A DNA stretch of 59,931 nt, taken from positions 1-59,931 of IMG/VR virus record IMGVR_UViG_3300042294_003065; one strand, 5' to 3'. The notes beneath the pieces are model-generated. The model saw nothing but the letters and a program-made list of their open reading frames with translations, ran no database searches and was not told the DNA's origin. The DNA is from a virus. Its lineage: Duplodnaviria > Caudoviricetes. Shown in pieces: positions 1,467-58,412 of this stretch. The position numbers and the translations under genes were made by a program. Numbering within the stretch: position 1 is the stretch's first letter; every line of letters starts with the position of its first letter.

Positions 1467-2254
1467 TCCCTGACCTTCATCACCCGGACGTGGGCGACGG
1501 GATGGATTTGGGTCTGGAGGGGTGCTGGCGGGGCTGGTGGCGCTGCGGCGGCCCCATTGGCGAGGATCTCCACGTCACGCATGAATGGGCGGATGCCGTC
1601 GAGGATCTCGTAGCGCCCCATCTTGATCTGCATCTCGTCCACCATGAATACCTCAGCCCTGGAGTGGCACTCGAAGAGCAACTCGAACTGGCGGGTTTCG
1701 TAGTTGGTCCTCACGCTGGACGGGCGCAGGTCTTTCTTGCACAGGGCGCACTGGAAGTAGGCGCGCTCCAGATCGTAGGCGTAGTCGGAGCGTGGCGGGA
1801 TGTAGGCGCGGTCGTCGCGATATGAGATGGAGTCGGGCGGACTTTTGAAGAAGCTCGGCGGGATCGCGGTCTCATCTTGGATTATGCGCAGCATCTCTTT
1901 CGTGAGATCAAAGGTGGAATTTTTGAATGTCACACTGGCGCTGTCGAGCGCCTTCTTCACCTCTGGATTCTTCGTATTCCACGGACTGCTGAACTCCAAC
2001 CACGTCGGGCCTACCGGGCCGAAGGGGATGATGGTGTCCAGCCAGCTTGCGACCTTGATGGCGATGGCGGTGGATTTGATCTGGATGTTCCCGAGTGACA
2101 TTGAACGCAACTCGCCGTGGCATCTGAACTCCAGCCAGTCTGAATCGCTGTCGGCTATCCTTCTGACCGTTGGGATCACCGGCACTGCGCACTTGGGGCA
2201 CTCCCACTTCCGGGAGTTGATGAGGTCCTGAATGATCATGATTGGGAGGTTCAC
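1463..2254 (-). CDS. Hypothetical protein with two CxxC...CH zinc-ribbon-like units
   Basis: CPKC...FRCHG and CALC...FECHS repeated units. Confidence 0.65.
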   Translation of the reverse strand: MNLPIMIIQDLINSRKWECPKCAVPVIPTVRRIADSDSDWLEFRCHGELRSMSLGNIQIKSTAIAIKVASWLDTIIPFGPVGPTWLEFSSPWNTKNPEVKKALDSASVTFKNSTFDLTKEMLRIIQDETAIPPSFFKSPPDSISYRDDRAYIPPRSDYAYDLERAYFQCALCKKDLRPSSVRTNYETRQFELLFECHSRAEVFMVDEMQIKMGRYEILDGIRPFMRDVEILANGAAAAPPAPPAPLQTQIHPVAHVRVMKVRD

Positions 2255-2529
2255 TTGGCGTCCGGGAGCTTGCGCAGCTTCGATCTTTCGATCCAGCGAA
2301 TCTTCGGTGGCTTCACGCGGTCGTCGGGGCGATCGAGATTGCAGGCGACCTTCTTGTGCTTGATTGGACGGAAGCAGGGGACCAGCAGGGGCTCACCGCG
2401 GCGCTTCGGGAAAGCGAGGGCATCGGCGATTTCGTAGCGGAACTTGATGACCCGATCGGGCTTCTCGGCTGTTGGATACGGCTTGGCGAACACACATTGG
2501 TCGCCGGGTGTGAGTTTTTCGAGTGCCAT
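2251..2529 (-). CDS. Hypothetical protein
   Basis: ORF in the operon chain. Confidence 0.6.
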   Translation of the reverse strand: MALEKLTPGDQCVFAKPYPTAEKPDRVIKFRYEIADALAFPKRRGEPLLVPCFRPIKHKKVACNLDRPDDRVKPPKIRWIERSKLRKLPDAK

Positions 2530-2530
2530 G

Positions 2531-2896
2531 TCAGGTCTCCTTCACGAAGACTCCGCCGGTCATCCGCCCCTTGCGATCCTTGATCTCCTGCCACGCAGCC
2601 TCGATGCACTCCTCCATGGTGAGGTCCCACATCTGGGCCTGCATGACTAGGGTTACGACGATGTCGCCGATGGCGTCCTTGGCCTCCTCCTTGAATTTCC
2701 TGTGATCACTCTTTGCGTCGATGGTGCCGTGCATCACCCCGCTGGCGTGGCCTTCCGCGCCCTCAATCGCAGCGCGAAGCTCCGCCACTTCCTCCTCGGT
2801 CTTCTTTTGCTGCCCGAGGCATGTGGCCTCTCCGGTTGGACCGATGAGGTTCCTGTCGATGCCCCATTGGATGATGTCTTGTTCTCTGTGGATCAT
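2531..2896 (-). CDS. MazG-like nucleotide pyrophosphohydrolase
   Basis: IIQWGIDRNL...EEVAEL...DAIGDIVVTL...EECIEAAWQEIKDRKG is the phage MazG-like signature. Confidence 0.88.
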   Translation of the reverse strand: MIHREQDIIQWGIDRNLIGPTGEATCLGQQKKTEEEVAELRAAIEGAEGHASGVMHGTIDAKSDHRKFKEEAKDAIGDIVVTLVMQAQMWDLTMEECIEAAWQEIKDRKGRMTGGVFVKET

Positions 2897-32915: not shown

Positions 32916-35900
32916 CTATGAATTGAGGATGGTGTCAAGGCGGGCGGAGAGACTGGTGCCGGCTTTCTTGCCCAGTCCGGCAAATGCCTCCGGGGCGAAC
33001 TTGCGGCCGATGTAGGCGGTGCCGATGACTGCTGCTCCCAGCTTGGCGGCGTTGATCATCCCCTTGTTCTCCTCCCGCTCATACCAGCGCTTGGGGCGGC
33101 GGTTGCGCTTGATCACGCCGGGGCGGTTGCGGACCCAGTGCTCCCATTGGTCGGGATACTGGGTGTTCTCGTCGAGCTGGATGAGCTTCGCGCCGGAGGA
33201 TAGCAGGCGGTCCGTGAGCTTCTTGGCCTCCTCGGCGATCTCGGCCTCCCGCTCCGTGCGACCGAGCTGACCGGGAGTGGCGGAGCGGACAGTCTTGAGG
33301 GCCTCCGGTGACATCCCGGCGGCGGCCTCATTGAGGGCTTCCTGCTTCTGCTGCGAGGTCATGTGCGGGAAGGGCGTGACCTTGGATGTCTCGGCTGCCT
33401 TGGTGGCTGCCCCGACGTTCTTCGAGTCCACCCATTTGTTCACTTTCCCAACGATCCCACCAGCGACTCCGGATGCCTCGTTGCCGGCGTTCTGTGCGGT
33501 CTTGGGAAAGAAGCTGCGCACCTTGTCGTAGGCTTCCGCCACGGGCTTGGGGACTGACTTGCGGATGGCTGACTGGACCTCCCCTTTGTTCCATCGGTTC
33601 TGGAATCCACGCATGGCAGAGTCGCCAGCGAAGCCCGCCTTGCCGCGCATGATCTTTCCTGCGGCCAGGAGGGAGCCTCCGGTGATTCCGATCGCGATCA
33701 GATTCTTCGCCCACGGCTTCTCCCACTCCCTCTTGCGCGGGCGTCCACGGGTGTCCACGGCCTTCTCTCCGCGCAGGGTGCCGCCGATGTCCTTCAGGAC
33801 TCCGGTGCCCCGGCGGTAGGCTTGCTGAATGTCCTGTCCGCGGCGGCTGTAGTTGACCTTGATCTCCTTGCCGGTGGCGGTCTCGCCTCCGATCCAGCGG
33901 CGGCTGTCGAAGTAGTCGAAGTTGATCACGGGCTGGCGGGCGCTGAAGAGCCTGCTGGCCCCGTAGAGCCCGAGTCCGGCGATGCCGAGCCCTGCTGCCC
34001 GGCGGCCCATCTTGGAGGCGGCCAGCTTGGCGCTCACGAGCTTGTCGTAGCCGCGCTTGCCGGTGAGTCCGATGGCCCCAATGGCGGCGGCTTTCCACGG
34101 CATACCCTCAGCCTGCTTGGCTCCACGGGAGCGGTCCCCGTAGATGTCCTTGGTCCCCGCGGTGGAGGCGCGCACCCCGATGGCGGTAGCTGCTCCGGCC
34201 CCGGCCCCGATGAGCGCACGGGCCTTGGCTGGCATGGTCCCGCGAAGGGCGGCTCCGAGTCCGGCTCCGGCTACAGTCGAGCGGAGGATGTTTGCGTCCC
34301 GGCGGTCGAGGTCCTCGTCCTGGATCTTCTTGCGGTAGCGGTCGGCGGCCAGCTTTCCGGTGAGTGGGACCTCGGCGAAGCGGATGGGAATGAGGCGCGA
34401 GGACATGCGTTGATCTTCCTTTGCCTTCTTCCTTCGGTTCTCCATGTATTTTCTAAAACCATAGACGCCTCCGATGACTCCGAGGCTGGCTGCACCGACG
34501 CCGATCATTGCTTTGTGTGTGCCGCGACTGGCATTCGCATCCGCCTCGTCAATCTGCTTTCCGAGCTTCTGTCTTGCAGCGTCTCCGCGCTCCTTCATTA
34601 CGCGCAGTTCATCAAGATCGCGCTTGATTGCATCCCGCTGCTTTAGGACTGGCCTGATCTTTCTGACGACCTCCGCGACAATCTTCTGATCATGCCCGCC
34701 CCCTTGCGCGACAGCCCTTTTGAATGTGCCCGAAAGCCGGTCTCCGAGACCTCTCTCCATGGCTGTGCCCTCCGCCAAAACCTTGGCGGCGTAATTTCCC
34801 CTAGCAAAGTAAATGGCGCTGGCTCGCGAGGACATGCGTTTGGTCTTTCCTCCATGCAGGGCGTCAACCGCGCTGCCCTCGTCCACGCCCTGATAGACAC
34901 CGTAGCCCCCGCCGCCGATGGCTCCGATGGCCGCTGCGCCAGCGGGTCCGGATCGGTTGGCCCAGGTGATCGGCCGCCAGTCAGCGTGCTTCGTCATAAA
35001 GGCGCGGCCCTTGGCGGTCTTGAGAGCCAGTAGCCCGGCGGCTCCGCCGGCTACGGCTCCACCGATTCCTCCGCCGAGCGCCGCCCGCTTGGTGTAGGCG
35101 GCCCGCTCGCCGGGCTTTGGATTGCCGCTGATGGCGTTGCCGATGAGGACTGATCCGGCGGCCAGTCCGGCGAGGGTTCCGCCTACTTTGCCGGCGATCT
35201 TGAGGGTTGGGCCGACTCTTGATCCTACCTTCAGGGCGGTTGGGATTCCGGCCACAAGTGCTCCGGTGGCTCCCGCGGAAAGTCCGGCCACGATGGATGG
35301 ATGGAGATGCTTCTTCTCAGCGAAGTGAATCGAGTTGCCCTTGGCGGCGAGCTTGCGCTGATAGATGTCACTGCGCCTGGGCGCGGGTTGCTTGACGGGC
35401 CATGCTGCGGGCTTATTTCCGATCCAGAGCGGGCGGGCCTTGATGACCTTCTCCACGTTATGACCGATGGCTGCCCCGGCGAGTCCTGTGCCGGGGGTGA
35501 CGCCGCCTCCGGCTACTACTCCGGTGACGTAGCCCACCTTGGCTCCCGTGGAGAGTCCCTTGAACTTGGCGAGCAGCTTCTTCACGAGGCTGGGCTCGGC
35601 GGGGCGCGAGGTCTGGATGAAGTTGGAGAACTTGCTGGAGAACTCGGTGGCGTATTCCGGACGGCGGGAAGCGTATCCCCCTGCTCCGCCGATGGCGAGA
35701 CCGGAGCCGATGCCGATGGCGATCTTCTTGCGGGCACCTCTGCGGATACCGGCGATCTCCTCGGCTTTCTTGGCGTTGGTTTCCCCAATGAAGCTCTCGC
35801 GGGCGATGGCGTATTCGTTGCGCTGCTTCTCACGCAGGGCTTTCTCGGAGGCGCGGACGCCCGCTGTTTCCATCCTGGCCTTGGCGATCTCAACTTCAGC

Positions 35901-38900
35901 GGCGTGGCCTGCCGCTTTGTCTCCAGCTCTCTCGCTGACGATTCCGTTGTACATGCGCGCCTTCTCGCTGGCGGCTTTGCGGGTCTCCCAGTCGTGGCTG
36001 ATCTTGATGTCCGGCTTCTTCCGCTCGGCATCCCGGCGCAGGACGATGCGCTCGTGGCGCTCAAGTCCCGGATTGGAGATGCGTGGCGCGGCCTTGCGGT
36101 CTTGCTTGATGAAGCGCGCCAGTTCTCTTCGGGCGTAATCCATGGTGTCCATGACCGGCGCTCCGGATGCCTGTGCTTTCTCCCAAATCCTTTTGGCGTA
36201 CGGGTTGTTGGGGAGCTTCCAGTTCTTCGCGCTGACTCCAAAACGGATCAGGCGCAGTCGCGATGCCATGAGCCGTTTCTGCGGCTCGTCCTTTTTCTTC
36301 AGGAGCCTGTTGGCGAGGTATCCGGCTCCGAGAATGCCGGCTCCGATGCCGATTTTTTGCAGGGTTCCAGTGCCGGGGTTGGGCGGGTATTTCCGCACGC
36401 GCGGGCGCTGGCTGATACCCTCGAAGAGTTCGCCCGAGTTGATGATGCGGCGCTTGATGATCCGCTCGGCTTTCTCTCCTCCGGCGGATTGCAGGAGTCC
36501 GAGGCGGGCCTGGGTGCGGTCGAAGCGGGCGCGCAGCTTCTCGGGGTCGGTCTCCTTGGACCAGATGGCGGATGCGGTGGTGTCCTTGACGGCTGCCTTG
36601 ATCGGGTTCTCGGATGGCGTGGCGAATCCTCCCTGCGGGGCCGGCTTGTTCTTGATCGGCGCGAGGATGTTCTCGGCCTTGGCGAGCCGCTCGGCGTCAT
36701 CCAGTCCATCGGTCGGGATGTTCTTCAGAGCCCGCTTCTCCAGTGCCCCGGTGTACCATGCGGCACGCTTCTTCCAGCGGGCCTGCCTTTCCTCCACGAG
36801 CTTCGGCAGCTTGGCCATCGCCTCGTTGACGATGCGGGGCTGCACTCCGCGGTCCATGGTCCTGCCGGTCCAGTTGGTCACGGGCCTGCCGAGATACTGG
36901 CGGCCGTAGGCTTGGGTGATCTCCTTGCGGGTGGCGAGTTCCTTGGCCAGGTCCCGGCGCACGGGGGTCATCGCCTCTCGGAGCTGCTCGCTGTTGCGGG
37001 TCAGCTTGGAGCTTTCCTTTTGAAACTGATCAGAAAGCGGGTCGCTGGTCGGCGCTCCGTCGCGGCGCACCTCGATGAGCTGCTGCTTCTTGGTTTTGAT
37101 CTTTGCCCCCTTGGCCTTGAGGTCCGCGAGGTTTCCCTTGATGACCGGCTCGGAGGCTTTGCGGAAGCCCTCGGTGTCCCGCCAGTCTGCCGGGTAGTGG
37201 CCGTAGCCCTGCTTGAAGGGCGGAAGCTCCTGATGCTTCTTGGCCCTCGGGGCGGCGGCGTAGTCCTCACCTTTTTTGAATTCCCCCTTGGGGTATTTCT
37301 CCATGCCGGGAAGGAGCTGGGTGGACTCGGCTCCGCGGCGGCGCTCGGGTGCCCCGCTCACACTGGGGTCGAGGATGCGCTGGCGTCCGCCGACATCCGT
37401 GACGCGGGGCGTGATCTTCTTCTCGCCTCCCTTGAAGCTGGCGAACACCGGGTCCGCCTTGCTCTGCACGGCCTGCCGGATGGCGCGGAGGTCGGCGTTC
37501 TTTTCCCATACGGAGCCGCGCAGGAGGGCACTGGCGCGCTTCTGGCTGGCTGCGGTGCGGGCCTCGCTGGGGCGGTCGAATCGGATGGTCTTCATCTTGC
37601 TGGAAAGCAGCCGTGTGATCTGCCGCGCCACCTCATCCTTGTCGCGGGCGGAGTCATTGAGCAGATCCTCCACGCCCTTGCTGGAGCCAGGGAAGAAGCG
37701 GTTCTTCGGGCGACCCACGTAGGAGCGGACATCCACGCTGCGGTCCTCGGGGTCCAGCGAGGCGTGGCTGCCCATGCGGGCCGAGCGTCCGACGACCTGC
37801 CGGATCTTGGCGTTGTTGAAGTGGGGTTCGAGGACCTGCACCATGCGGGTGCCCTTGAGGTCGAGGCCCTCCGCTCCGGAGGAGGAGACGAGCAGCGCGC
37901 GGTGCCTACCCTCGTTGTAGTCACGGACGGTCTGGTTGCGGACCTTCATGGTCTCGTTGCCGGTGAAGACGCCGTGCGGGATCTTGGCGGCGGTCAGGCG
38001 TTGCTGGAGAGGCTCGATGCCGTGCTTCAGCCAGTTGGAATAAACCAGTGCCTTGCCCTTGGGGTTCTTGAGGTGGCCTTCGAGATCGCGGAAGGCGCGG
38101 TCGATCTTGGGCTCATCCGCGCTGGAGGGATCGAGAGCGCGGGCGCTGTTGCTCACCTGCCGCGGGCCGGTCAGGTAGGGCTTGAGCCGGTCGATGTTCT
38201 CCTGGCTGATCTTCAGGCCCTTGGGGACACCGCCGAGGCTGGCTCGGTAGAGGGCGCTCTGGTGCTTGGTCATCTCCACCGGGATGGTCTGCGATGTGAC
38301 CTTGGGCAGCATGGAGGGATCGCCCTTGTGGTAGTCCACGTATTTGTTCAGCACCTTCTTCAGCTCGCCGGAATGACTGAGGCGCTCACCCCTCCAGCGG
38401 GAGAAGAAGTTCGGACGGGTGTAGCGGTTCTCGAATGCCTTGCCCTCGCGCAGGACGGGCTTGCCGGCGGCCTGGTTGACCAGTGTGCCGATGTCGGAGG
38501 GGTTGTTGAAGATCGGGGTGCCAGTGAGCAGCATCCGCTTTTGCGCAGGGCTGCCCTTAATCGCGTCCGAGAGGGCCGACTTGGGGTTACGTGCCCGGTG
38601 GGCCTCATCGACGATCAGGAGGCGGCTTTTTAGCGCACCACGGCCCTTCAGGGAGAGGGCCTGCTGGCTCATCACGTTGGCTTCAGGGCCTCCCCAGCGG
38701 GCGGTCTCCTTCCGGTAGTTCTCACGCAGGGCGGCCGGAAGGATCACGTCGGCACTTCCGCCCATGGCCTTGTGGGCTTCGATGGCAGTTCTGGTTTTCC
38801 CCGAACCGAGGCCGTGGGCCACCACGAGACCGGACTGGCTGGGGTCCTGGATGCGGCGGATGACGCGGCGCTGGTGGGGCTGGAGTTCTTCGGCAAATTG

Positions 38901-39608
38901 GATGGGCTTCGCCGCGATCTTCTTCCTCTTCGCGATCGTGCGGCGCTTGGGACCTGCGATCGGTGATCGCTTGCCTCCTGTGTCTCCGTCCGGTTCTGCG
39001 GTGCAATACATGAACTGGATGAGGGGGGCTTTGGACGAGCAGTTCCACTTCCGTAGCGAGAGCGCCTTGCGGGTCGGCTCCCCGTTGGGCTTTTCCATCG
39101 GACCCTGCATGCCGGACATCCGGGCGCAGAAAGACTTGCGGCGCTTGGCCGGCTTGGAGTCGGGATCGAGCTTCGAGGGCGGCGTGGTCACGGCCGTCTT
39201 GAGCTTGCTGCCGGGGTTCTCTCGGCGGTAGCTGGCTACGCCCTTGCGGTTGAGTCCGCCTGATTCGCTCTTGCCTTCCTTGCGCTGCCACGCTGCGGAT
39301 GCCAGCTCGATCGGCGCTGCGGCGGACTGCATGCGCTGGACCTTCACGGTGATCTTCTGCTTGCCCTGCTTGAGGGCGGCGTTTGCGCGGTGATTGCCAT
39401 CAAGGATCGAGTATTTTCCATGCCCGCGGTGCGAGACCGTCACGGTGCCCGGCATGTTTTTTGTGAACCTTGCCAGTTTCTTGATCTTCTTCTCGCTCAC
39501 CGTGCCCTGCGTGCTCACAAGGTTCTTGAGCTTGATCTTGCGCTCGGTGCCCTTGCCGATGCGGTGCATCCCTGGCTTGAGTCCTTCGACGTAGAGTGGG
39601 TTCTTCAT
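32916..39608 (-). CDS. 2230-aa polyvalent polyprotein-like gene: ParB/Srx-like, DUF6321-like, SNF2-family helicase, then basic glycine-zipper modules
   Basis: ILDGNHR; AWQRKEGK...GGLN.KG..SY...RRKSFCARM...RKWNC; helicase motifs LQPHQ, HGLGSGKT, DEAH, LTGTP, EGLDL, QVVGRSAR; about 11 linkers. Confidence 0.85.
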   Translation of the reverse strand: MKNPLYVEGLKPGMHRIGKGTERKIKLKNLVSTQGTVSEKKIKKLARFTKNMPGTVTVSHRGHGKYSILDGNHRANAALKQGKQKITVKVQRMQSAAAPIELASAAWQRKEGKSESGGLNRKGVASYRRENPGSKLKTAVTTPPSKLDPDSKPAKRRKSFCARMSGMQGPMEKPNGEPTRKALSLRKWNCSSKAPLIQFMYCTAEPDGDTGGKRSPIAGPKRRTIAKRKKIAAKPIQFAEELQPHQRRVIRRIQDPSQSGLVVAHGLGSGKTRTAIEAHKAMGGSADVILPAALRENYRKETARWGGPEANVMSQQALSLKGRGALKSRLLIVDEAHRARNPKSALSDAIKGSPAQKRMLLTGTPIFNNPSDIGTLVNQAAGKPVLREGKAFENRYTRPNFFSRWRGERLSHSGELKKVLNKYVDYHKGDPSMLPKVTSQTIPVEMTKHQSALYRASLGGVPKGLKISQENIDRLKPYLTGPRQVSNSARALDPSSADEPKIDRAFRDLEGHLKNPKGKALVYSNWLKHGIEPLQQRLTAAKIPHGVFTGNETMKVRNQTVRDYNEGRHRALLVSSSGAEGLDLKGTRMVQVLEPHFNNAKIRQVVGRSARMGSHASLDPEDRSVDVRSYVGRPKNRFFPGSSKGVEDLLNDSARDKDEVARQITRLLSSKMKTIRFDRPSEARTAASQKRASALLRGSVWEKNADLRAIRQAVQSKADPVFASFKGGEKKITPRVTDVGGRQRILDPSVSGAPERRRGAESTQLLPGMEKYPKGEFKKGEDYAAAPRAKKHQELPPFKQGYGHYPADWRDTEGFRKASEPVIKGNLADLKAKGAKIKTKKQQLIEVRRDGAPTSDPLSDQFQKESSKLTRNSEQLREAMTPVRRDLAKELATRKEITQAYGRQYLGRPVTNWTGRTMDRGVQPRIVNEAMAKLPKLVEERQARWKKRAAWYTGALEKRALKNIPTDGLDDAERLAKAENILAPIKNKPAPQGGFATPSENPIKAAVKDTTASAIWSKETDPEKLRARFDRTQARLGLLQSAGGEKAERIIKRRIINSGELFEGISQRPRVRKYPPNPGTGTLQKIGIGAGILGAGYLANRLLKKKDEPQKRLMASRLRLIRFGVSAKNWKLPNNPYAKRIWEKAQASGAPVMDTMDYARRELARFIKQDRKAAPRISNPGLERHERIVLRRDAERKKPDIKISHDWETRKAASEKARMYNGIVSERAGDKAAGHAAEVEIAKARMETAGVRASEKALREKQRNEYAIARESFIGETNAKKAEEIAGIRRGARKKIAIGIGSGLAIGGAGGYASRRPEYATEFSSKFSNFIQTSRPAEPSLVKKLLAKFKGLSTGAKVGYVTGVVAGGGVTPGTGLAGAAIGHNVEKVIKARPLWIGNKPAAWPVKQPAPRRSDIYQRKLAAKGNSIHFAEKKHLHPSIVAGLSAGATGALVAGIPTALKVGSRVGPTLKIAGKVGGTLAGLAAGSVLIGNAISGNPKPGERAAYTKRAALGGGIGGAVAGGAAGLLALKTAKGRAFMTKHADWRPITWANRSGPAGAAAIGAIGGGGYGVYQGVDEGSAVDALHGGKTKRMSSRASAIYFARGNYAAKVLAEGTAMERGLGDRLSGTFKRAVAQGGGHDQKIVAEVVRKIRPVLKQRDAIKRDLDELRVMKERGDAARQKLGKQIDEADANASRGTHKAMIGVGAASLGVIGGVYGFRKYMENRRKKAKEDQRMSSRLIPIRFAEVPLTGKLAADRYRKKIQDEDLDRRDANILRSTVAGAGLGAALRGTMPAKARALIGAGAGAATAIGVRASTAGTKDIYGDRSRGAKQAEGMPWKAAAIGAIGLTGKRGYDKLVSAKLAASKMGRRAAGLGIAGLGLYGASRLFSARQPVINFDYFDSRRWIGGETATGKEIKVNYSRRGQDIQQAYRRGTGVLKDIGGTLRGEKAVDTRGRPRKREWEKPWAKNLIAIGITGGSLLAAGKIMRGKAGFAGDSAMRGFQNRWNKGEVQSAIRKSVPKPVAEAYDKVRSFFPKTAQNAGNEASGVAGGIVGKVNKWVDSKNVGAATKAAETSKVTPFPHMTSQQKQEALNEAAAGMSPEALKTVRSATPGQLGRTEREAEIAEEAKKLTDRLLSSGAKLIQLDENTQYPDQWEHWVRNRPGVIKRNRRPKRWYEREENKGMINAAKLGAAVIGTAYIGRKFAPEAFAGLGKKAGTSLSARLDTILNS

Positions 39609-41428
39609 CAGTTCTTCGAGGATGATCCGTTGACCTTCGGCTTACTGCCGTTGCTGCTGGTGGTCTTGGGTCCGGCGACGACGGGGGCGTGGGCTCCCTC
39701 CGGGGTCAGACCGGCGTTGCGGTTGAGTTGCTCCTCCTCGGGTTCTTCCGGAATGATCTTCTCGGCCTCCGATCGGGTGGAGCCGGGGAATCCCTTGAGG
39801 ATCATCTCGACCGCCGATTCGCGGTCGATGGTGCCGTTGCCTACCTTCTCCATGATCTCGACGATGAGCTTGAGGCCCTTGTCGCCCACGGCCTGGATGC
39901 TGAGCGGTGGAGGCGGAGGCATCGGTGTGGGCGTAAGGAAGGCGGCCTTCTCCTGTGTAATCGACCCGAAGAGGCCGCGGGCCACGGTCTCCCCTGGTAG
40001 CTGAGCTTTTGCCGCTTCTTCGATGAGCTTGTTCCCCGCAGCGAAGTTGGAGGCGACGACCTCGCCAAAGGATTTTCCAGTGTGCTTGGCGACGACCTCC
40101 TCGATTTCAAGGATGCCAGCGGCGGCGAGGCTGAGATCGGCCTGGGCCTCGTGGCCCAGGTCGGCGGTGATCGGGCGGCTCCAGTGCCATGCACACTGCT
40201 TCCAGCCGGGAGTGGGCGGCAGGACGCCGAGGGAGATGCCCTGCGCGATGACCTTCTGGCGCACGCGGTTGAGGACGAGGTTTTCGAGGAGTCCCTGCCA
40301 GCTCTCGATCTTGCGCAGATCAGCCTGGATCTCCACTCGGGTATTGGCTCCGCCGAGCACGGAGATGTCCCAGAGCAGGCCATAGCTGATGCCGAGGCTG
40401 ACGCTCATCTTCCGGATGAGGGTCTGGACGAAGGCCATGAACGCTCCACTCGGGCGAGCGCTGGGGCTCATCATGGAGAAGTTCTCACCCTCGGCCAGCT
40501 TGAGCAGCTTGCCCCATTGGGCGTCCTGCGTGGGCGTGCCCTGCGCCGTCTTGCCGTCCCATGCGCCGGGGCCGTTGCCGTTGAAGGGGTCCTTGGTGCC
40601 GATCAGGGCGGCGTACTGCGCCTGCACCTTGCCGGCGATCTTCTCCGCCTCGATCCACTCGCGGATGTCCCGGATGTCGTTGAGGCAGCGCAGCAGCTTG
40701 GTGCGTCCGCGGTATTCGCCGGGCCGGTAGGGGTCGTGCAGATGGATGAAGGAGTCCATCGGGACCTCCTGCGGTTCCACGTATGATCCGTCCTTCTTGT
40801 GGCGGAAGATGCGGGCGCTCAGGATGCGGCCGGTGTTCTCGTCGATGGTGAAGCCGCCGATGTAGTTCTCCGCCTGCGTCGCCTCGGTCGGGGAGCCGAT
40901 ACGGTCAGCCTCGATGGACTGAAGGCAGTAGCCGCCGGTCGGGCTGAACTGCGGGGCGATCTCCACGAAGCCGGCGTCGCCGTCCACCATGAAGCCGTGG
41001 TAGGCCATCTGGACCATCTCGATGAAGCGGGCGCGGCCCGAGAGATCGCACATCGTCCCGCCGTCCTCCCCTCGGTCGTCGCCACACCAGGAGTGGAGGT
41101 AGCCGTCGTATGCTGCGTCGATCTGTCCGTCCCCGGTGTTGGATTTGCAGTGAAGTTTTCCCGCGACGTACAGGGTGAGGCGCTCGATGACGCCACCCAC
41201 GAAGTCCAGCTCGACAGCCTCCCGCGCATCGGCCATCGCGGTGTAGCGGTCCCGCTGCTTGCGCCATGACTCAGCTCCGGTCTGACTGACCGGCTTGGCT
41301 CTCCCGCGCCTTTCAGGATTCGGATTGTACTCGCTGAACTCCAGCAGACGCGAGCGGAAGTCCGGGTGGATCTCGGTGATGACCCTGCCGCCGGAGTCGA
41401 GCAGACGGATGAGATTGTCTTTGGCCAT
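39608..41428 (-). CDS. Portal protein, lambda family
   Basis: VDGDAG, IEADRI, FIHLHDPYRPGEYRG, EAEKIAGKV.A.YAA.I. Confidence 0.92.
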   Translation of the reverse strand: MAKDNLIRLLDSGGRVITEIHPDFRSRLLEFSEYNPNPERRGRAKPVSQTGAESWRKQRDRYTAMADAREAVELDFVGGVIERLTLYVAGKLHCKSNTGDGQIDAAYDGYLHSWCGDDRGEDGGTMCDLSGRARFIEMVQMAYHGFMVDGDAGFVEIAPQFSPTGGYCLQSIEADRIGSPTEATQAENYIGGFTIDENTGRILSARIFRHKKDGSYVEPQEVPMDSFIHLHDPYRPGEYRGRTKLLRCLNDIRDIREWIEAEKIAGKVQAQYAALIGTKDPFNGNGPGAWDGKTAQGTPTQDAQWGKLLKLAEGENFSMMSPSARPSGAFMAFVQTLIRKMSVSLGISYGLLWDISVLGGANTRVEIQADLRKIESWQGLLENLVLNRVRQKVIAQGISLGVLPPTPGWKQCAWHWSRPITADLGHEAQADLSLAAAGILEIEEVVAKHTGKSFGEVVASNFAAGNKLIEEAAKAQLPGETVARGLFGSITQEKAAFLTPTPMPPPPPLSIQAVGDKGLKLIVEIMEKVGNGTIDRESAVEMILKGFPGSTRSEAEKIIPEEPEEEQLNRNAGLTPEGAHAPVVAGPKTTSSNGSKPKVNGSSSKN

Positions 41429-53846: not shown

Positions 53847-54019
53847 AGATCGAGGCAACTCTGTCCGAGGTTTCCTACGACTTCGTTCTACAGATCAGCG
53901 TAGGAGCTGATGTGTCCAAGGAGATCGTGCTGGAGCGCGTGAATCGAATCCTTGATCTTGGCGAGGCCGCCGAGCTGAAGGAGTGGCGCAAGAAGAAGGC
54001 CAAGAAAGGCTCGAAATGA
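53843..54019 (+). CDS. Small hypothetical protein
   Basis: ATGA overlaps on both sides. Confidence 0.5.
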   Translation: MKIEATLSEVSYDFVLQISVGADVSKEIVLERVNRILDLGEAAELKEWRKKKAKKGSK

Positions 54020-55527
54020 GCTGGATCTCCTCATTCCAGGACGCCCGCGACGCCGGGGTGCCGATCATCATCATCCGCTGCCCAGATAATGCGGCGGTCA
54101 TGGATGCAGTCGTGAAGTCGGACGGGGACTCAGCCCTGACGGTCTGGGACATCAACCGTGGCGTCCGGGGGCTCAACACCCTCGGAATGGCGGCGGCCAA
54201 TGAGGTCAACAAGGACTCGAAGAAGCCGGCGGCCCTGACCACCGGGAATCCGCAGGAGGCGCTCATGAGGGCGCTGGAGTTCATGCCGAGTGGCGCGGTC
54301 CTGTTCATGGAGAATGCCCAACTCCTCCTGGAGTGCCGGGAGGAGGCCAAGAAGCTGGTCATGGTGCAGTGCGTGGCCAACTGCCGCGATCCGTTCAAGT
54401 CGAGCGGCCGGACGCTGGTGCTGCTCTGCCCGGACATCAAAGTTCCGATCGAGCTGCGCCATGACGTGATCGTGTTGGATGTCCCGCTGCCGGATGCCGC
54501 AGAATTAACCGAGGTGGTCACAGGGCTCCTCAAGGCGGGTCAACAGCCAGATCCGACCCAGGAGGCCCTTGGCGGGGCTGTGGCGGCCATTACGGGCCTG
54601 TCCCGGTTCGTGGCTGAGAACGCCGTGGCGATGTCGCTGCGGAAGTCCGGCCTGGACCTGGAGGCCCTGTGGGAGCGGAAGATCAGCGCCATCAATGCGG
54701 TGGGTGGCCTGACCGTCAGCCGGGACAAGGTGGTGTTCGATCAGATTGGCGGGCTGAATGCCGTGAAGGCGTTCTGCAAAGCCAAGGTGTCCGGCAAGCG
54801 CCGGCCGCGGATCGTGGTGCTGGTCGATGAGATCACCGATCAGATGTCCGGTCGGGGTGACTCGAACGGCATCAACCGGGACGCGCAGGGGCAGATGCTC
54901 CAGTGCATGCAGAACTACCGCTGGTCGGGTGCTCTGTTTCACGGGTTCGCAGGAACCGGGAAGACGGAGATCGCCAAGGCCATGGGCTGTGAAGCTGGTG
55001 GTCTGTTCGTCGCGTTCGACATGGGCGCGATGAAGGGGGGCATCGTGGGTGACTCGGAGAAACTGATCCGGGACGCCATGAATGTGCTATACGCCATGGG
55101 CGGGGAGGACGTGTTCTTCATTGGCACGACCAACTCGGTGGATGAGCTGACCCCGCAGATGAAGAGAAGGTTCGGCGTGACCTTCTTCTTCGATCTGTTG
55201 AAGAGCGAGGAGCAGCTACCGATCTGGGACATCTACATCCGGAAGTTCAAGCTGGATGGAACCCAGAAGCTCCCGGACCACGAAGGGTGGACGGGTGCGG
55301 AGATCCGCAGGGTGTGCGAGCTGGCCGATGAGTTCGGGATCAGCCTGATCGAGGCCAGCAAATACATCAGCCCGGTCGTGAAGGCGATGGGTGATGATGT
55401 GGAGACAATGAGGCAGAGCGCCTCCGGCAAGTATCTCTCTGCCGCGAAAGAGGGTTATTACGAAACAAAACGGTCTCTGGACACCAGCAAGGTGCGCCGG
55501 ATGATCGACAAGAAAGGAACCAACTAA
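54016..55527 (+). CDS. Ycf46-like AAA+ ATPase with a permuted ATPase domain
   Basis: Degenerate first AAA domain (P.EL...V.LD.PLP...EL), DQIGGL, VLVDE at 54811, GFAGTGKT at 54943, sensor-1 TTN, RRF, GWTGAEI. Confidence 0.85.
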   Translation: MSWISSFQDARDAGVPIIIIRCPDNAAVMDAVVKSDGDSALTVWDINRGVRGLNTLGMAAANEVNKDSKKPAALTTGNPQEALMRALEFMPSGAVLFMENAQLLLECREEAKKLVMVQCVANCRDPFKSSGRTLVLLCPDIKVPIELRHDVIVLDVPLPDAAELTEVVTGLLKAGQQPDPTQEALGGAVAAITGLSRFVAENAVAMSLRKSGLDLEALWERKISAINAVGGLTVSRDKVVFDQIGGLNAVKAFCKAKVSGKRRPRIVVLVDEITDQMSGRGDSNGINRDAQGQMLQCMQNYRWSGALFHGFAGTGKTEIAKAMGCEAGGLFVAFDMGAMKGGIVGDSEKLIRDAMNVLYAMGGEDVFFIGTTNSVDELTPQMKRRFGVTFFFDLLKSEEQLPIWDIYIRKFKLDGTQKLPDHEGWTGAEIRRVCELADEFGISLIEASKYISPVVKAMGDDVETMRQSASGKYLSAAKEGYYETKRSLDTSKVRRMIDKKGTN

Positions 55528-55855: not shown

Positions 55856-56182
55856 ATGCCCTGCAACAGCATCCGCGTAACCAGCATCACGCTGGAGAAC
55901 AAGGAGCCCGCCACGCTGGCCGACGCCCTCAAGGCGATGGGCTACAACGTGCGGGCGATCGGCAACCAGGTGAACTTCTCCGGCTACAACAAAGCCGGGG
56001 AGTACGCCGAGGGGTCGTATCTCGCAGGCGAGCTGAAGTATCAGGGCACGGTGCGGGTGGCGGAGGTGAAGCAAGCCTACGCCGCCCAGATCGTGGAGGC
56101 GACCTACTCGGGATACGGGTGGGAGCTGACCAAGCAAGAGGATGGCAGCTATGTGGCGGAGAAACAGACGGGGGCTTGGTAG
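55856..56182 (+). CDS. DUF1257/Ycf35-like protein
   Basis: L..AL..MGY...VKQAYA..IV......GW; typical neighbour of Ycf46-like ATPases. Confidence 0.55.
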   Translation: MPCNSIRVTSITLENKEPATLADALKAMGYNVRAIGNQVNFSGYNKAGEYAEGSYLAGELKYQGTVRVAEVKQAYAAQIVEATYSGYGWELTKQEDGSYVAEKQTGAW

Positions 56183-56841: not shown

Positions 56842-57309
56842 ATGAAATCAGCTAAAGAACTCGGCATCGAACAATGGGAGCTTGATGCACTCCTGAAGAC
56901 GCGGGAATTTCTCCAGCGCCAACATCCTCCGCTTCCGGAGGACGTGAATAGTGATGCCGGATTCCCGGATGGCCCTGGGGTCACGCGGTTCTGCATGAGC
57001 TACCCGGTTCAGGCATTCGACTGCGGGACCGCCATGTGCATTGGTGGCTTCGTGAAGATCTTTGGCCAACTGGAGATTCCGGTTGGGAGCAAGATTACTA
57101 TATCTCGCGATGAGGCAGAGGGCATTAGCTCTTATGTCGAGTCTTTCAAACTAGGTAGCAGCCTCCGTGATCTGTTCTATCCGGAAAGCAGGTTCGACTA
57201 CACAAGGATCACCGCCGAGCAGGCCGCGGTGGCGATCACCAACTTCCTCGAAGAGGGCGATCCTGCGTGGGCTACTATCGAGGGGATTCCGGTAGAGGAG
57301 GGCGAGTAA
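56842..57309 (+). CDS. Hypothetical protein
   Basis: F.M......CGT..CIGG...LFYP...IT..QAA.AI.NFL..G.P.W pattern. Confidence 0.65.
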   Translation: MKSAKELGIEQWELDALLKTREFLQRQHPPLPEDVNSDAGFPDGPGVTRFCMSYPVQAFDCGTAMCIGGFVKIFGQLEIPVGSKITISRDEAEGISSYVESFKLGSSLRDLFYPESRFDYTRITAEQAAVAITNFLEEGDPAWATIEGIPVEEGE

Positions 57310-58412
57310 TGACCAAGTTCCAACAATACGCCCGCGAAAACTACAAGCCCTTCGGGGTGCGGGATGAGATGTGGCATGACGCAGTGATCGCCGAGTGCAA
57401 CGTGATCGACGCTGAGGAAGCCGCGCGCCGCGAGGGCGAGCTGAGAAAGAAGGAGGCCGACCGCAAGCGCATCAGCGAGGTGGTCGAGAGGACGGCGGAC
57501 ATCAACGCCGAGCTGGCCGGCCGCATCGTGGTGAAGGTCAAGTTCGAGGGCAGCCACGCCAAGAAGAAGGCCCTGACCCGCGATGAGAAGAAGCTGGTGA
57601 TGACCCTGCCGGCGGACGTGAAGACGACCATCGGCGGAGACAAGCCGCTGTTCGAGTGCAAGGAATACGATGAGCTGATGAAGTTCATCTCCGATCGCCG
57701 GGACCAGTTCGCCAGGTTCGGTATCCCGCACATCCAGTTCGAGGCGGCGCACGTCACGGATATTAACAACATCCCAGACATCGAGGCCCTTGCCGAGAAG
57801 ACGGAGGCCCAACTGGTGTATGCCGTGGCTCGCTTCATCGAGGCGTGGCCATCAGCAATCGAGCGGGCGAAGGGCGATCTGGGTCCGTTGTTCAATCCGA
57901 ACGACTACATGGCCATCGAGGCTCTGGAGAAGCTGTTCCGGTTCTCATACAACTGGATGGCCTTCGGTGTGCCCGATGAGCTGAAGCAGTTCAACCCGCG
58001 CATCTACGCCAAGGCGAAAGCCAAGGCGGAGAAGGTGTGGGCGGAGATCGAAGCCAATGGTGTGGCGCTGCTGCGGGAGACCGTGGCGGACCTCGTGGGT
58101 GGGCTAGCTGAAAGCCTGACACCCAAGGACGGCGGGGAGAAGAAGAAGTTCTATCCCTCCTCGGTGGAGAAGATCACGGACTTCATCGAGTCCTTCAAGA
58201 AGCGGAACATCTGCAACGATGTCGAGCTGGAGGCTGAAGTGGAGAAGCTCTCCGGGCTGGTGAAGGGTATCAATGTGGAGAAGCTCTCCGCGGGCGAAAA
58301 GGGCGACAACGCCCTGCGTGAAACTGTGCGCAAGCAGATGGAGGAGGCCAAGGGGTCTCTGGACCAACTGCTGGTGAGCGCCAGTGCGCGGGTGATGAAG
58401 CTCCGCGATTAA
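57309..58412 (+). CDS. DUF3150-like protein
   Basis: LG.LFNP.DY...L...FRFSY.W...; helical C-terminus; often clusters with phage AAA ATPases. Confidence 0.6.
   Translation: MTKFQQYARENYKPFGVRDEMWHDAVIAECNVIDAEEAARREGELRKKEADRKRISEVVERTADINAELAGRIVVKVKFEGSHAKKKALTRDEKKLVMTLPADVKTTIGGDKPLFECKEYDELMKFISDRRDQFARFGIPHIQFEAAHVTDINNIPDIEALAEKTEAQLVYAVARFIEAWPSAIERAKGDLGPLFNPNDYMAIEALEKLFRFSYNWMAFGVPDELKQFNPRIYAKAKAKAEKVWAEIEANGVALLRETVADLVGGLAESLTPKDGGEKKKFYPSSVEKITDFIESFKKRNICNDVELEAEVEKLSGLVKGINVEKLSAGEKGDNALRETVRKQMEEAKGSLDQLLVSASARVMKLRD

Follow-up and report, generated by a model that had tools for sequence, protein, structure and literature searches.

The window analysed here is the whole 59,931-nt stretch of the IMG/VR record IMGVR_UViG_3300042294_003065 (Duplodnaviria; Caudoviricetes), a linear phage genome that is 82% complete. 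Towards its end lies a plus-strand gene for a tandem AAA protein, whose C-terminal domain (D2) is a classical-clade AAA domain in which two internal blocks, A and B, are exchanged, placing the Walker B unit ahead of the Walker A unit. A first-pass annotation, made from the sequence alone, had proposed such a segment swap within an open frame. All of the motifs that it had named were found, in that order and at the positions given below, in the translation of 53983-55524, and the frame is uninterrupted over 514 codons (53983-55527, plus strand). The gene has an in-frame upstream GTG at 53983 as an alternative start, which gives 514 aa, and an ATG at 54016 (M12), which is the start used by the database copy P0002 and by homologues; residue numbers are counted from 53983 throughout. 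The coding sequence, the four blocks N, B, A and C, and the motifs read from the translation are as follows.

54016..55527, plus strand: coding sequence for the tandem AAA protein (503 aa when started at the ATG, M12)
54016..54798, plus strand: block N (residues 12-272), with the P-loop-less AAA-like N-domain, helical lid, linker, N-loop and D2 helix 0
54739-54756, plus strand: DQIGGL, the N-loop (residues 253-258)
54799..54921, plus strand: block B (residues 273-313), displaced, with the Walker B strand, the GDSNG loop and helix 3 ending in MQN
54811-54831, plus strand: IVVLVDE, Walker B (residues 277-283; D282 and E283)
Residues 292-309, plus strand: GDSNG...QMLQCMQ
54922..55104, plus strand: block A (residues 314-374), with strand 1, Walker A, helix 1, strand 2, pore loop and helix 2
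54943-54966, plus strand: GFAGTGKT, Walker A (residues 321-328; K327)
Residues 345-359, plus strand: FDMG..GIVGDSE
55033-55059, plus strand: KGGIVGDSE, the pore loop (residues 351-359)
55105..55482, plus strand: block C (residues 375-500), with the sensor-1 strand, arginine fingers, strand 5 and helical lid
55114-55134, plus strand: FFIGTTN, sensor 1 (residues 378-384; N384)
55165-55170, plus strand: arginine fingers R395-R396, within RRF (residues 395-397)
55285-55305, plus strand: GWTGAEI lid motif

Measured against classical AAA domains, D2 holds Walker A, Walker B, sensor 1 with the arginine fingers, and pore loop 1, and it departs from them in the linear order of its strands, which is 3, 1, 2, 4, 5 in place of the canonical 1, 2, 3, 4, 5. 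The claim that the catalytic residues are intact was borne out, since none of E283, K327, N384 and R396 varies across 149 sequences, in which D282 is at least 90% conserved; moreover, D282, E283, G321, G324, K327, N384 and R396 are all invariant in an alignment of 25 relatives that extends down to 37% identity. In the pore loop, V355 is invariant in the 25 sequences, G356 is at least 90% conserved, and position 354 is occupied by I, L, Y, W or F. The concern that a different acidic strand might take the Walker B position was dispelled by the same conservation data, as E283 is the sole acidic residue of the domain that is invariant across the 149 sequences. The pair E375-D376, which lies before the sensor-1 strand, was considered as an alternative Walker B and rejected because its columns are not conserved.

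Variation at the active site was also observed among members of the swapped family. Walker A reads GPPGAAKS, with alanine for the usually invariant glycine before the lysine, in 27 of the 118 motif-classed swapped proteins (e.g., P0062, P0073, P0117 and P0121). Inteins, which typically occupy indispensable sites, were found in several members with lengths of about 280-410 aa; they split the sensor-1 motif between AT and CN in P0063 and P0251, between blocks A and C, and the P-loop between G..G and xxKS in P0268 and P0283, inside block A. The precomputed Pfam domains of P0063 include PF14528 and PF14890.

The N-terminal half of the protein has no Walker A in residues 1-250. Because the model of the whole protein aligns with the tandem-AAA chains of Cdc48, p97 and Rix7 (E-values down to 4e-16, over about 570-620 alignment columns) despite this missing P-loop, the N-terminal half is read, on the strength of the model, as a probable degenerate first AAA domain (D1).

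Homologues with the same motif order, the search for which had been suggested as a check, were found across the whole family. A word-indexed search returned 269 relatives, the best 120 of which were listed and are all about 500 aa long. The alignment of 25 relatives, every row of which has the same motif order, was cut into the four blocks, and one hidden Markov model (HMM) was built for each. With these block HMMs, the order N-B-A-C was found in 122 of 122 proteins in the set formed by the word search, the query and phage Tunturi_3, and in 141 of 141 new representatives at 50% identity, with no instance of N-A-B-C in either set. Among 80 complete IMG/VR open reading frames (ORFs), 79, including the ORF of the window itself, have the order N-B-A-C, and the sole N-A-B-C case is locus L079. 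An exhaustive search covering 1.84 billion clusters at 50% identity, the source of the 141 new representatives, gave 4,115 matches at E ≤ 0.001, of which 988 reached E ≤ 1e-30, with the best 150 representatives all swapped; the swapped form is spread over at least 150 clusters at this identity. A scan of bacterial and archaeal genomes found at least one locus, in a Terriglobia metagenome-assembled genome (L084). In one further IMG/VR locus, L082, a frameshift or a sequencing error has broken the swapped AAA gene into two ORFs (1229-1813 and 1830-2558, plus strand), and this is the only broken copy among the 80 IMG/VR loci.

By comparison, the order N-A-B-C was found with the block HMMs in 121 of 121 proteins comprising the relatives of L079 and gp65 of Aeromonas phage HJ05 (WEV89366.1), as well as in L079 itself. 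L079 (31% identity) and its 120 listed relatives have the normal order, and their family is a large one, with 5,276 matches among the 8,000 candidates scored. HJ05 gp65 (22% identity) also has the normal order and carries GGGDSGVG...LTFMQE after its Walker B. In the canonical protein P0124 the blocks lie end to end (A 244-302, B 304-344, C 346-470); therefore, the rearrangement is a clean exchange of neighbouring blocks of about 61 and 41 residues. Block N is collinear between swapped and canonical relatives, and the window protein is identical to P0124 at 33% of positions in block N, 30% in block B (11/37), 46% in block A (28/61, without gaps) and 42% in block C. The block HMM order, read beside these canonical relatives, upholds the original statement that the strand-3/helix-3 unit precedes strand 1, helix 1, strand 2 and helix 2. 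It is also correct that this is no simple circular permutation of the whole domain, as two internal blocks have been exchanged while the flanks N and C are in place.

Profile searches show the displacement from another side. The Pfam AAA profile (PF00004) scores 52.7 bits against a cut-off of 21.2, in two stretches, the better of which covers profile positions 2-51 of 131, and an alignment with the Cdc48 structure covers residues 315-380 (Walker A to helix 2) and, separately, residues 375-448 (sensor 1 onward). No Walker B unit is found at its normal site in the window protein, that is, between the two pieces aligned by Pfam AAA and Cdc48. A profile of block B (residues 273-313) matches the normal Walker B block of P0124 (E 5.5e-10) and of HJ05 gp65 (E 4.5e-6). 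Because the Pfam and Cdc48 alignments break exactly where Walker B belongs and the block B profile matches the canonical block, the block order is beyond chance. The NCBIfam CDC48, PAN and FtsH models cover 185 residues of the canonical P0124 (E 1.5e-24), versus residues 315-367 of the window protein (E 2e-6). Likewise, phrog_8638 (568 positions), which is annotated as of "unknown function" and is the canonical-order family, matches HJ05 gp65 (positions 16-552, E 5.5e-138) and P0124 (23-542, E 4.3e-85) end to end in one stretch, whereas swapped proteins match it in two to four pieces; the match to P0001 (E 9e-31) falls in two stretches, the best at profile positions 22-290, and does not run end to end. 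The link to Ycf46 is a source label only, carried by three homologues ("SpoVK/Ycf46/Vps4 family AAA+-type ATPase"), and no Ycf46 model is among the NCBIfam matches. Weak partial matches to the PADLOC defence models IetA (E 1e-4, over residues 376-451) and mad8 (E 5e-4) were also obtained for this gene, which sits in a phage genome.

AlphaFold2 models of the protein are confident, with a mean predicted local distance difference test score (pLDDT) of 87.3 for the whole protein (25 sequences) and, for D2 alone (149 sequences), a pLDDT of 93.7 and a predicted template-modelling score of 0.88. The D2 model has exactly five strands (277-281, 315-321, 342-344, 377-383 and 399-403), with helices between them and a helical lid; block B contributes the strand at 277-281 and a helix at 297-311. 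When the D2 model was superposed with VIA-align, which is independent of Foldseek, spastin was matched at Z 14.0 with a root-mean-square deviation (rmsd) of 2.7 Å over 183 aligned residues, followed by NVL (Z 13.9), Pex1/6 (13.8), Vps4 (13.5), Rix7 (13.3) and FtsH (12.7). Seventy-four chains reached Z ≥ 8, with classical AAA proteins at Z 12.6-14.0 and rmsd 2.6-3.3 Å. The aligned length of about 183-194 of the approximately 230 residues of D2 corresponds to the domain minus about one block B, which is what a sequential aligner is expected to give if all other elements keep their canonical places. The loops newly formed in the models are short, with 3 residues at 312-314, 3 residues at 374-376 and 6 residues at 271-276. 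A prediction of a three-copy D2 complex scored 0.11 (mark 0.42) and bears neither way on ring formation.

Co-evolution was analysed by mean-field direct coupling analysis (DCA) of 329 distinct swapped D2 sequences (effective number of sequences 281; 30,135 pairs). Between the Walker B strand (276-284) and the sensor-1 strand (376-384), five pairs lie in the top 100 where 0.27 are expected, and the pairs V278-F378, V279-F379, V281-F379, D282-T382 and I284-G381 are in parallel register. Helix 3 and helix 2 share nine pairs in the top 150 (1.4 expected), while the Walker B strand has none in the top 150 with strand 1 and none with strand 5 (0.31 expected in each case). Coupling also links L280 to T328 and A331, where helix 1 begins. 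Moreover, positions that are covalent neighbours in the canonical chain are still coupled, namely I277 with G373 (start of strand 3 and end of helix 2) and C308 with F379 (end of helix 3 and start of strand 4). The couplings as a whole have the pattern of the usual 5-1-4-3-2 sheet. From the superposition, the AlphaFold2 model and co-evolution, the spatial arrangement of the swapped D2 appears to stay canonical, with the wiring alone altered. The proposal of a rewired P-loop topology therefore holds for the connectivity of the chain, that is, the block order, and does not extend to the arrangement in space, which appears canonical in the model, the superposition and the DCA.

The change can be described as a re-routing of three loops only. 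The canonical D2 chain runs from helix 0 through strand 1 to helix 2, then strand 3 and helix 3, and on to strand 4, and the swapped chain runs from helix 0 through strand 3 and helix 3, then strand 1 to helix 2, and on to strand 4. Helix 0 thus leads to strand 3 (formerly 1), helix 3 to strand 1 (formerly 4) and helix 2 to strand 4 (formerly 3), each new target probably lying one or two places from the old one in the 5-1-4-3-2 sheet. As the three loops would cross the sheet in the same direction as before, the right-handed crossovers and the helix positions could be retained, and strands and helices would occupy the same places in space as in a canonical domain. In that case the ATP site would be formed as in any AAA protein by the IGG of the N-loop, K327/T328, D282/E283 and N384, with R395/R396 supplied by the neighbouring subunit.

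The origin of the swap was examined with a tree of 72 swapped rows and 21 L079-type rows with HJ05 as outgroup (482 columns from block-wise alignments; IQ-TREE quick search under LG+G4), in which 70 swapped and 20 canonical rows were drawn at random and the rest of the sequences were left out. A branch with a Shimodaira-Hasegawa-like approximate likelihood-ratio support of 99 separates the swapped rows from all others, and the trait needs one change on this tree; identical breakpoints everywhere agree with a single event. The swap thus probably arose once from a canonical ancestor of the phrog_8638 type. The most economical route would be that the A-B unit was duplicated in tandem and that the outer A and the outer B were then lost, which would leave B-A; this duplication-loss route is one that we infer.

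Taking these results together, it is considered very probable that the block swap is real and under selection and that the AAA fold is retained. The fuller reading, that the family forms a hitherto undescribed topological class of AAA+ ATPases in which a natural, once-arisen and non-cyclic swap within the catalytic ASCE (additional strand, catalytic glutamate) core has kept the canonical active site and ATPase function, is given a probability of roughly 0.55. Several points weigh against the main reading of a block swap with a retained fold. Foldseek, a sequential aligner, gave for D2 a best E-value of 3.5e-7, with template-modelling scores of 0.3-0.5 and rmsd of 10-20 Å. In the DCA, coupling between the Walker B strand and strand 2 is weak, with two pairs in the top 150 (V279-F345 and L280-F342; 0.31 expected), signals for the remaining strand pairs of the sheet barely emerge, and independence of pairs is assumed in the hypergeometric p-values. 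The placement of the moved strand between strands 4 and 2 is suggested by DSSP, the superposition statistics and co-evolution, and was not read off the model. The canonical rows of the tree represent only two lineages, the L079 group and HJ05, and the tree tests clustering and not nesting. Among 466 proteins, none was a duplication intermediate carrying block A or block B twice. Finally, the ATPase activity, ring formation and substrate of the swapped protein are properties that we infer.

Three other explanations of the motif order were weighed. The window is a metagenome-derived, linear and incomplete record, and the broken copy on the related contig L082 shows that damaged versions of the gene are found; both could suggest an assembly artefact, a chimera or a decaying pseudogene, in which the order would be an error or a one-off accident. 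This explanation is given next to no credence, as the order recurs in all 263 swapped-family database proteins and, on contigs other than the window, in 78 intact IMG/VR ORFs, to about 31-36% identity, as well as in the isolate phage Tunturi_3, and the frame is open with invariant catalytic residues. Misassembly in particular, which had been named as the finding that would overturn the swap, is excluded because independently assembled Logan contigs from three other runs (X6, X7 and X8) each bridge the junctions 54798/9, 54921/2 and 55104/5 with 0 differences and show no rearrangement. Contigs of run X11 bridge the first and third junctions, and no joints or loose ends were found in any of these four runs.

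The two remaining explanations accept the order as real and differ in what it means for the fold. The IVVLVDE unit could be a linker or regulatory element outside the ATPase core, leaving a D2 without a Walker B that would bind ATP at most and not hydrolyze it; standard profiles indeed show no Walker B at the normal place, and the strand order does not come directly from the model. This is regarded as very improbable, as block B shares homology with the genuine Walker B block of the canonical relatives, E283 is invariant in the 149 sequences, and no conserved acidic residue is found where helix 2 meets strand 4. The moved strand, moreover, co-evolves in register with the sensor-1 strand, helix 3 co-evolves with helix 2, and since the AlphaFold2 model of D2 has only five strands, the canonical sheet would be incomplete without the moved one. 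A slim chance is likewise left for a three-dimensional domain swap, in which the strand-3/helix-3 unit would complete the fold of the neighbouring subunit in an interlocked ring. Co-evolution is blind to the difference between contacts within and between chains, and a new N-terminal sub-unit, connected by short loops, results from the permutation, both of which would suit such an exchange. However, the model of the monomer has high confidence throughout block B and at both junctions (means of 85-98 over blocks of 10 residues), and the loops from helix 3 to strand 1 and from helix 2 to strand 4, at 3 residues each, suffice for a route within the chain.

In the window, the terminase, portal and major head genes are on the minus strand, and the AAA gene sits among small plus-strand genes without an assigned function. 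A second gene is conserved downstream of it.

57309..58412, plus strand: DUF3150-like gene (about 300-370 aa in the family), conserved downstream of the AAA gene

By BLAST clustering, DUF3150-like genes of one cluster are found after the AAA gene in 68 loci, the window among them, and PF11348 matches 12 of 37 cluster members. An HMM of the DUF3150-like family detects the gene in 79 of 84 loci, among them Tunturi_3, the Terriglobia locus and the canonical-order L079. The five loci without it are L034 and L063, which end right after the AAA gene, L083, which is a short cut of the window, L073 and HJ05. For this partner, PHROGs gave matches for 0 of 37 members, no NCBIfam or PADLOC match was found, the best E-value against solved structures was 0.13, and the ESM Atlas returned only viral clusters labelled "hypothetical protein/DUF3150". 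Since swapped and L079-type ATPases share this two-gene module, the swapped form is likely to have the same role as the canonical one. The conserved module would belong to the early/middle region of the phage genome, and the AAA protein may be a ring-forming, pore-loop-driven ATP-dependent remodeller or unfoldase that acts with the DUF3150 protein on a protein or nucleoprotein substrate.

Several further observations were made around the locus. ORF96 of Tunturi_3 (11642-12670 of L001) is a DUF3150-like homologue (HMM E 2.8e-88) annotated as "HNH endonuclease", which looks like a mis-annotation. For a small plus-strand gene at 55857-56182, shortly 3' of the AAA gene, homologues occupy this position in 13 loci, and there is no family match. 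On the minus strand, the portal gene (39608-41428) is immediately followed by a 2230-aa ORF (32916-39608). Region 229-616 of this ORF resembles superfamily 2 helicases (phrog_62, E 4e-37), several PHROGs of unknown function are matched by its residues 80-200, and it may encode a large virion or ejected protein. Near-identical copies of 54400-55500 of the window were found in lake and freshwater metagenome runs dating from 2016 to 2024 (runs X1-X21), with 18 metagenome runs holding at least half of the sampled words of this region, and the phage appears persistent and widespread in this habitat.

Few features in protein evolution are as conserved as the order and connectivity of the strands in the P-loop ASCE core, and textbook definitions of AAA+ proteins assume that Walker A precedes Walker B. 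No AAA+ or other ASCE core with Walker B before Walker A was found in the literature covered, which included few subscription journals, so that an earlier mention is possible. The swap indicates that the core wiring of a very conserved enzyme fold can change in nature. In canonical AAA proteins, the end of helix 3 is the position of the inter-subunit signalling loop; if the reading is true, the swap joins this end directly to the P-loop strand, and the coupling between nucleotide state and neighbouring subunit may therefore differ from that of every AAA motor studied. With a large swapped clade and close canonical relatives in the same gene context, the family offers a before-and-after pair that could serve studies of the tolerance of rewiring, of the role of connectivity in folding and allosteric coupling, and of the engineering of permuted motors. 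Moreover, as profiles see only fragments of such a protein and sequential structure aligners score it poorly, permuted enzymes of this kind are systematically under-annotated in viral metagenomes.

Compared with known systems, the swapped proteins share much with the phrog_8638-type proteins (HJ05 gp65 and the L079/P0124 group), including the four blocks, a length of about 490-555 aa, an N-domain without a P-loop, the GDSxG...MQ[DE] signature that follows Walker B, and the GWTGAEI motif of the lid. Downstream of the L079 canonical form, as of the swapped form, there is a DUF3150 gene, whereas none was found at the HJ05 locus. The phrog_8638-type proteins differ in having the order N-A-B-C and in matching the phrog_8638, CDC48, FtsH and PAN profiles in one long stretch, while the swapped proteins match them in 2-4 pieces or over about 50 residues. 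With classical-clade AAA proteins (spastin, Vps4, katanin, the D2 domains of Cdc48/p97/NVL/Rix7, FtsH and PAN), the swapped D2 has in common Walker A, a Walker B of the form hhhhDE, the sensor-1 asparagine, the two arginines of the second region of homology, a pore loop with a hydrophobic residue followed by V-G, and a lid without a sensor-2 arginine. It differs from them in that the Walker B unit precedes the Walker A unit and the first domain is without a P-loop; in addition, no N-terminal substrate or adaptor domain was recognised in the swapped protein, unlike in these proteins. By analogy, the nearest precedent would be the circularly permuted GTPases YlqF/RbgA and YjeQ/RsgA, P-loop NTPases in which the motif order is altered and the fold is kept. 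In those GTPases, which belong to the TRAFAC (translation factor-related) class, the whole domain is circularly permuted (G4-G5-G1-G2-G3), whereas in the swapped AAA proteins two internal blocks are exchanged within an ASCE/AAA domain and the flanks stay fixed.

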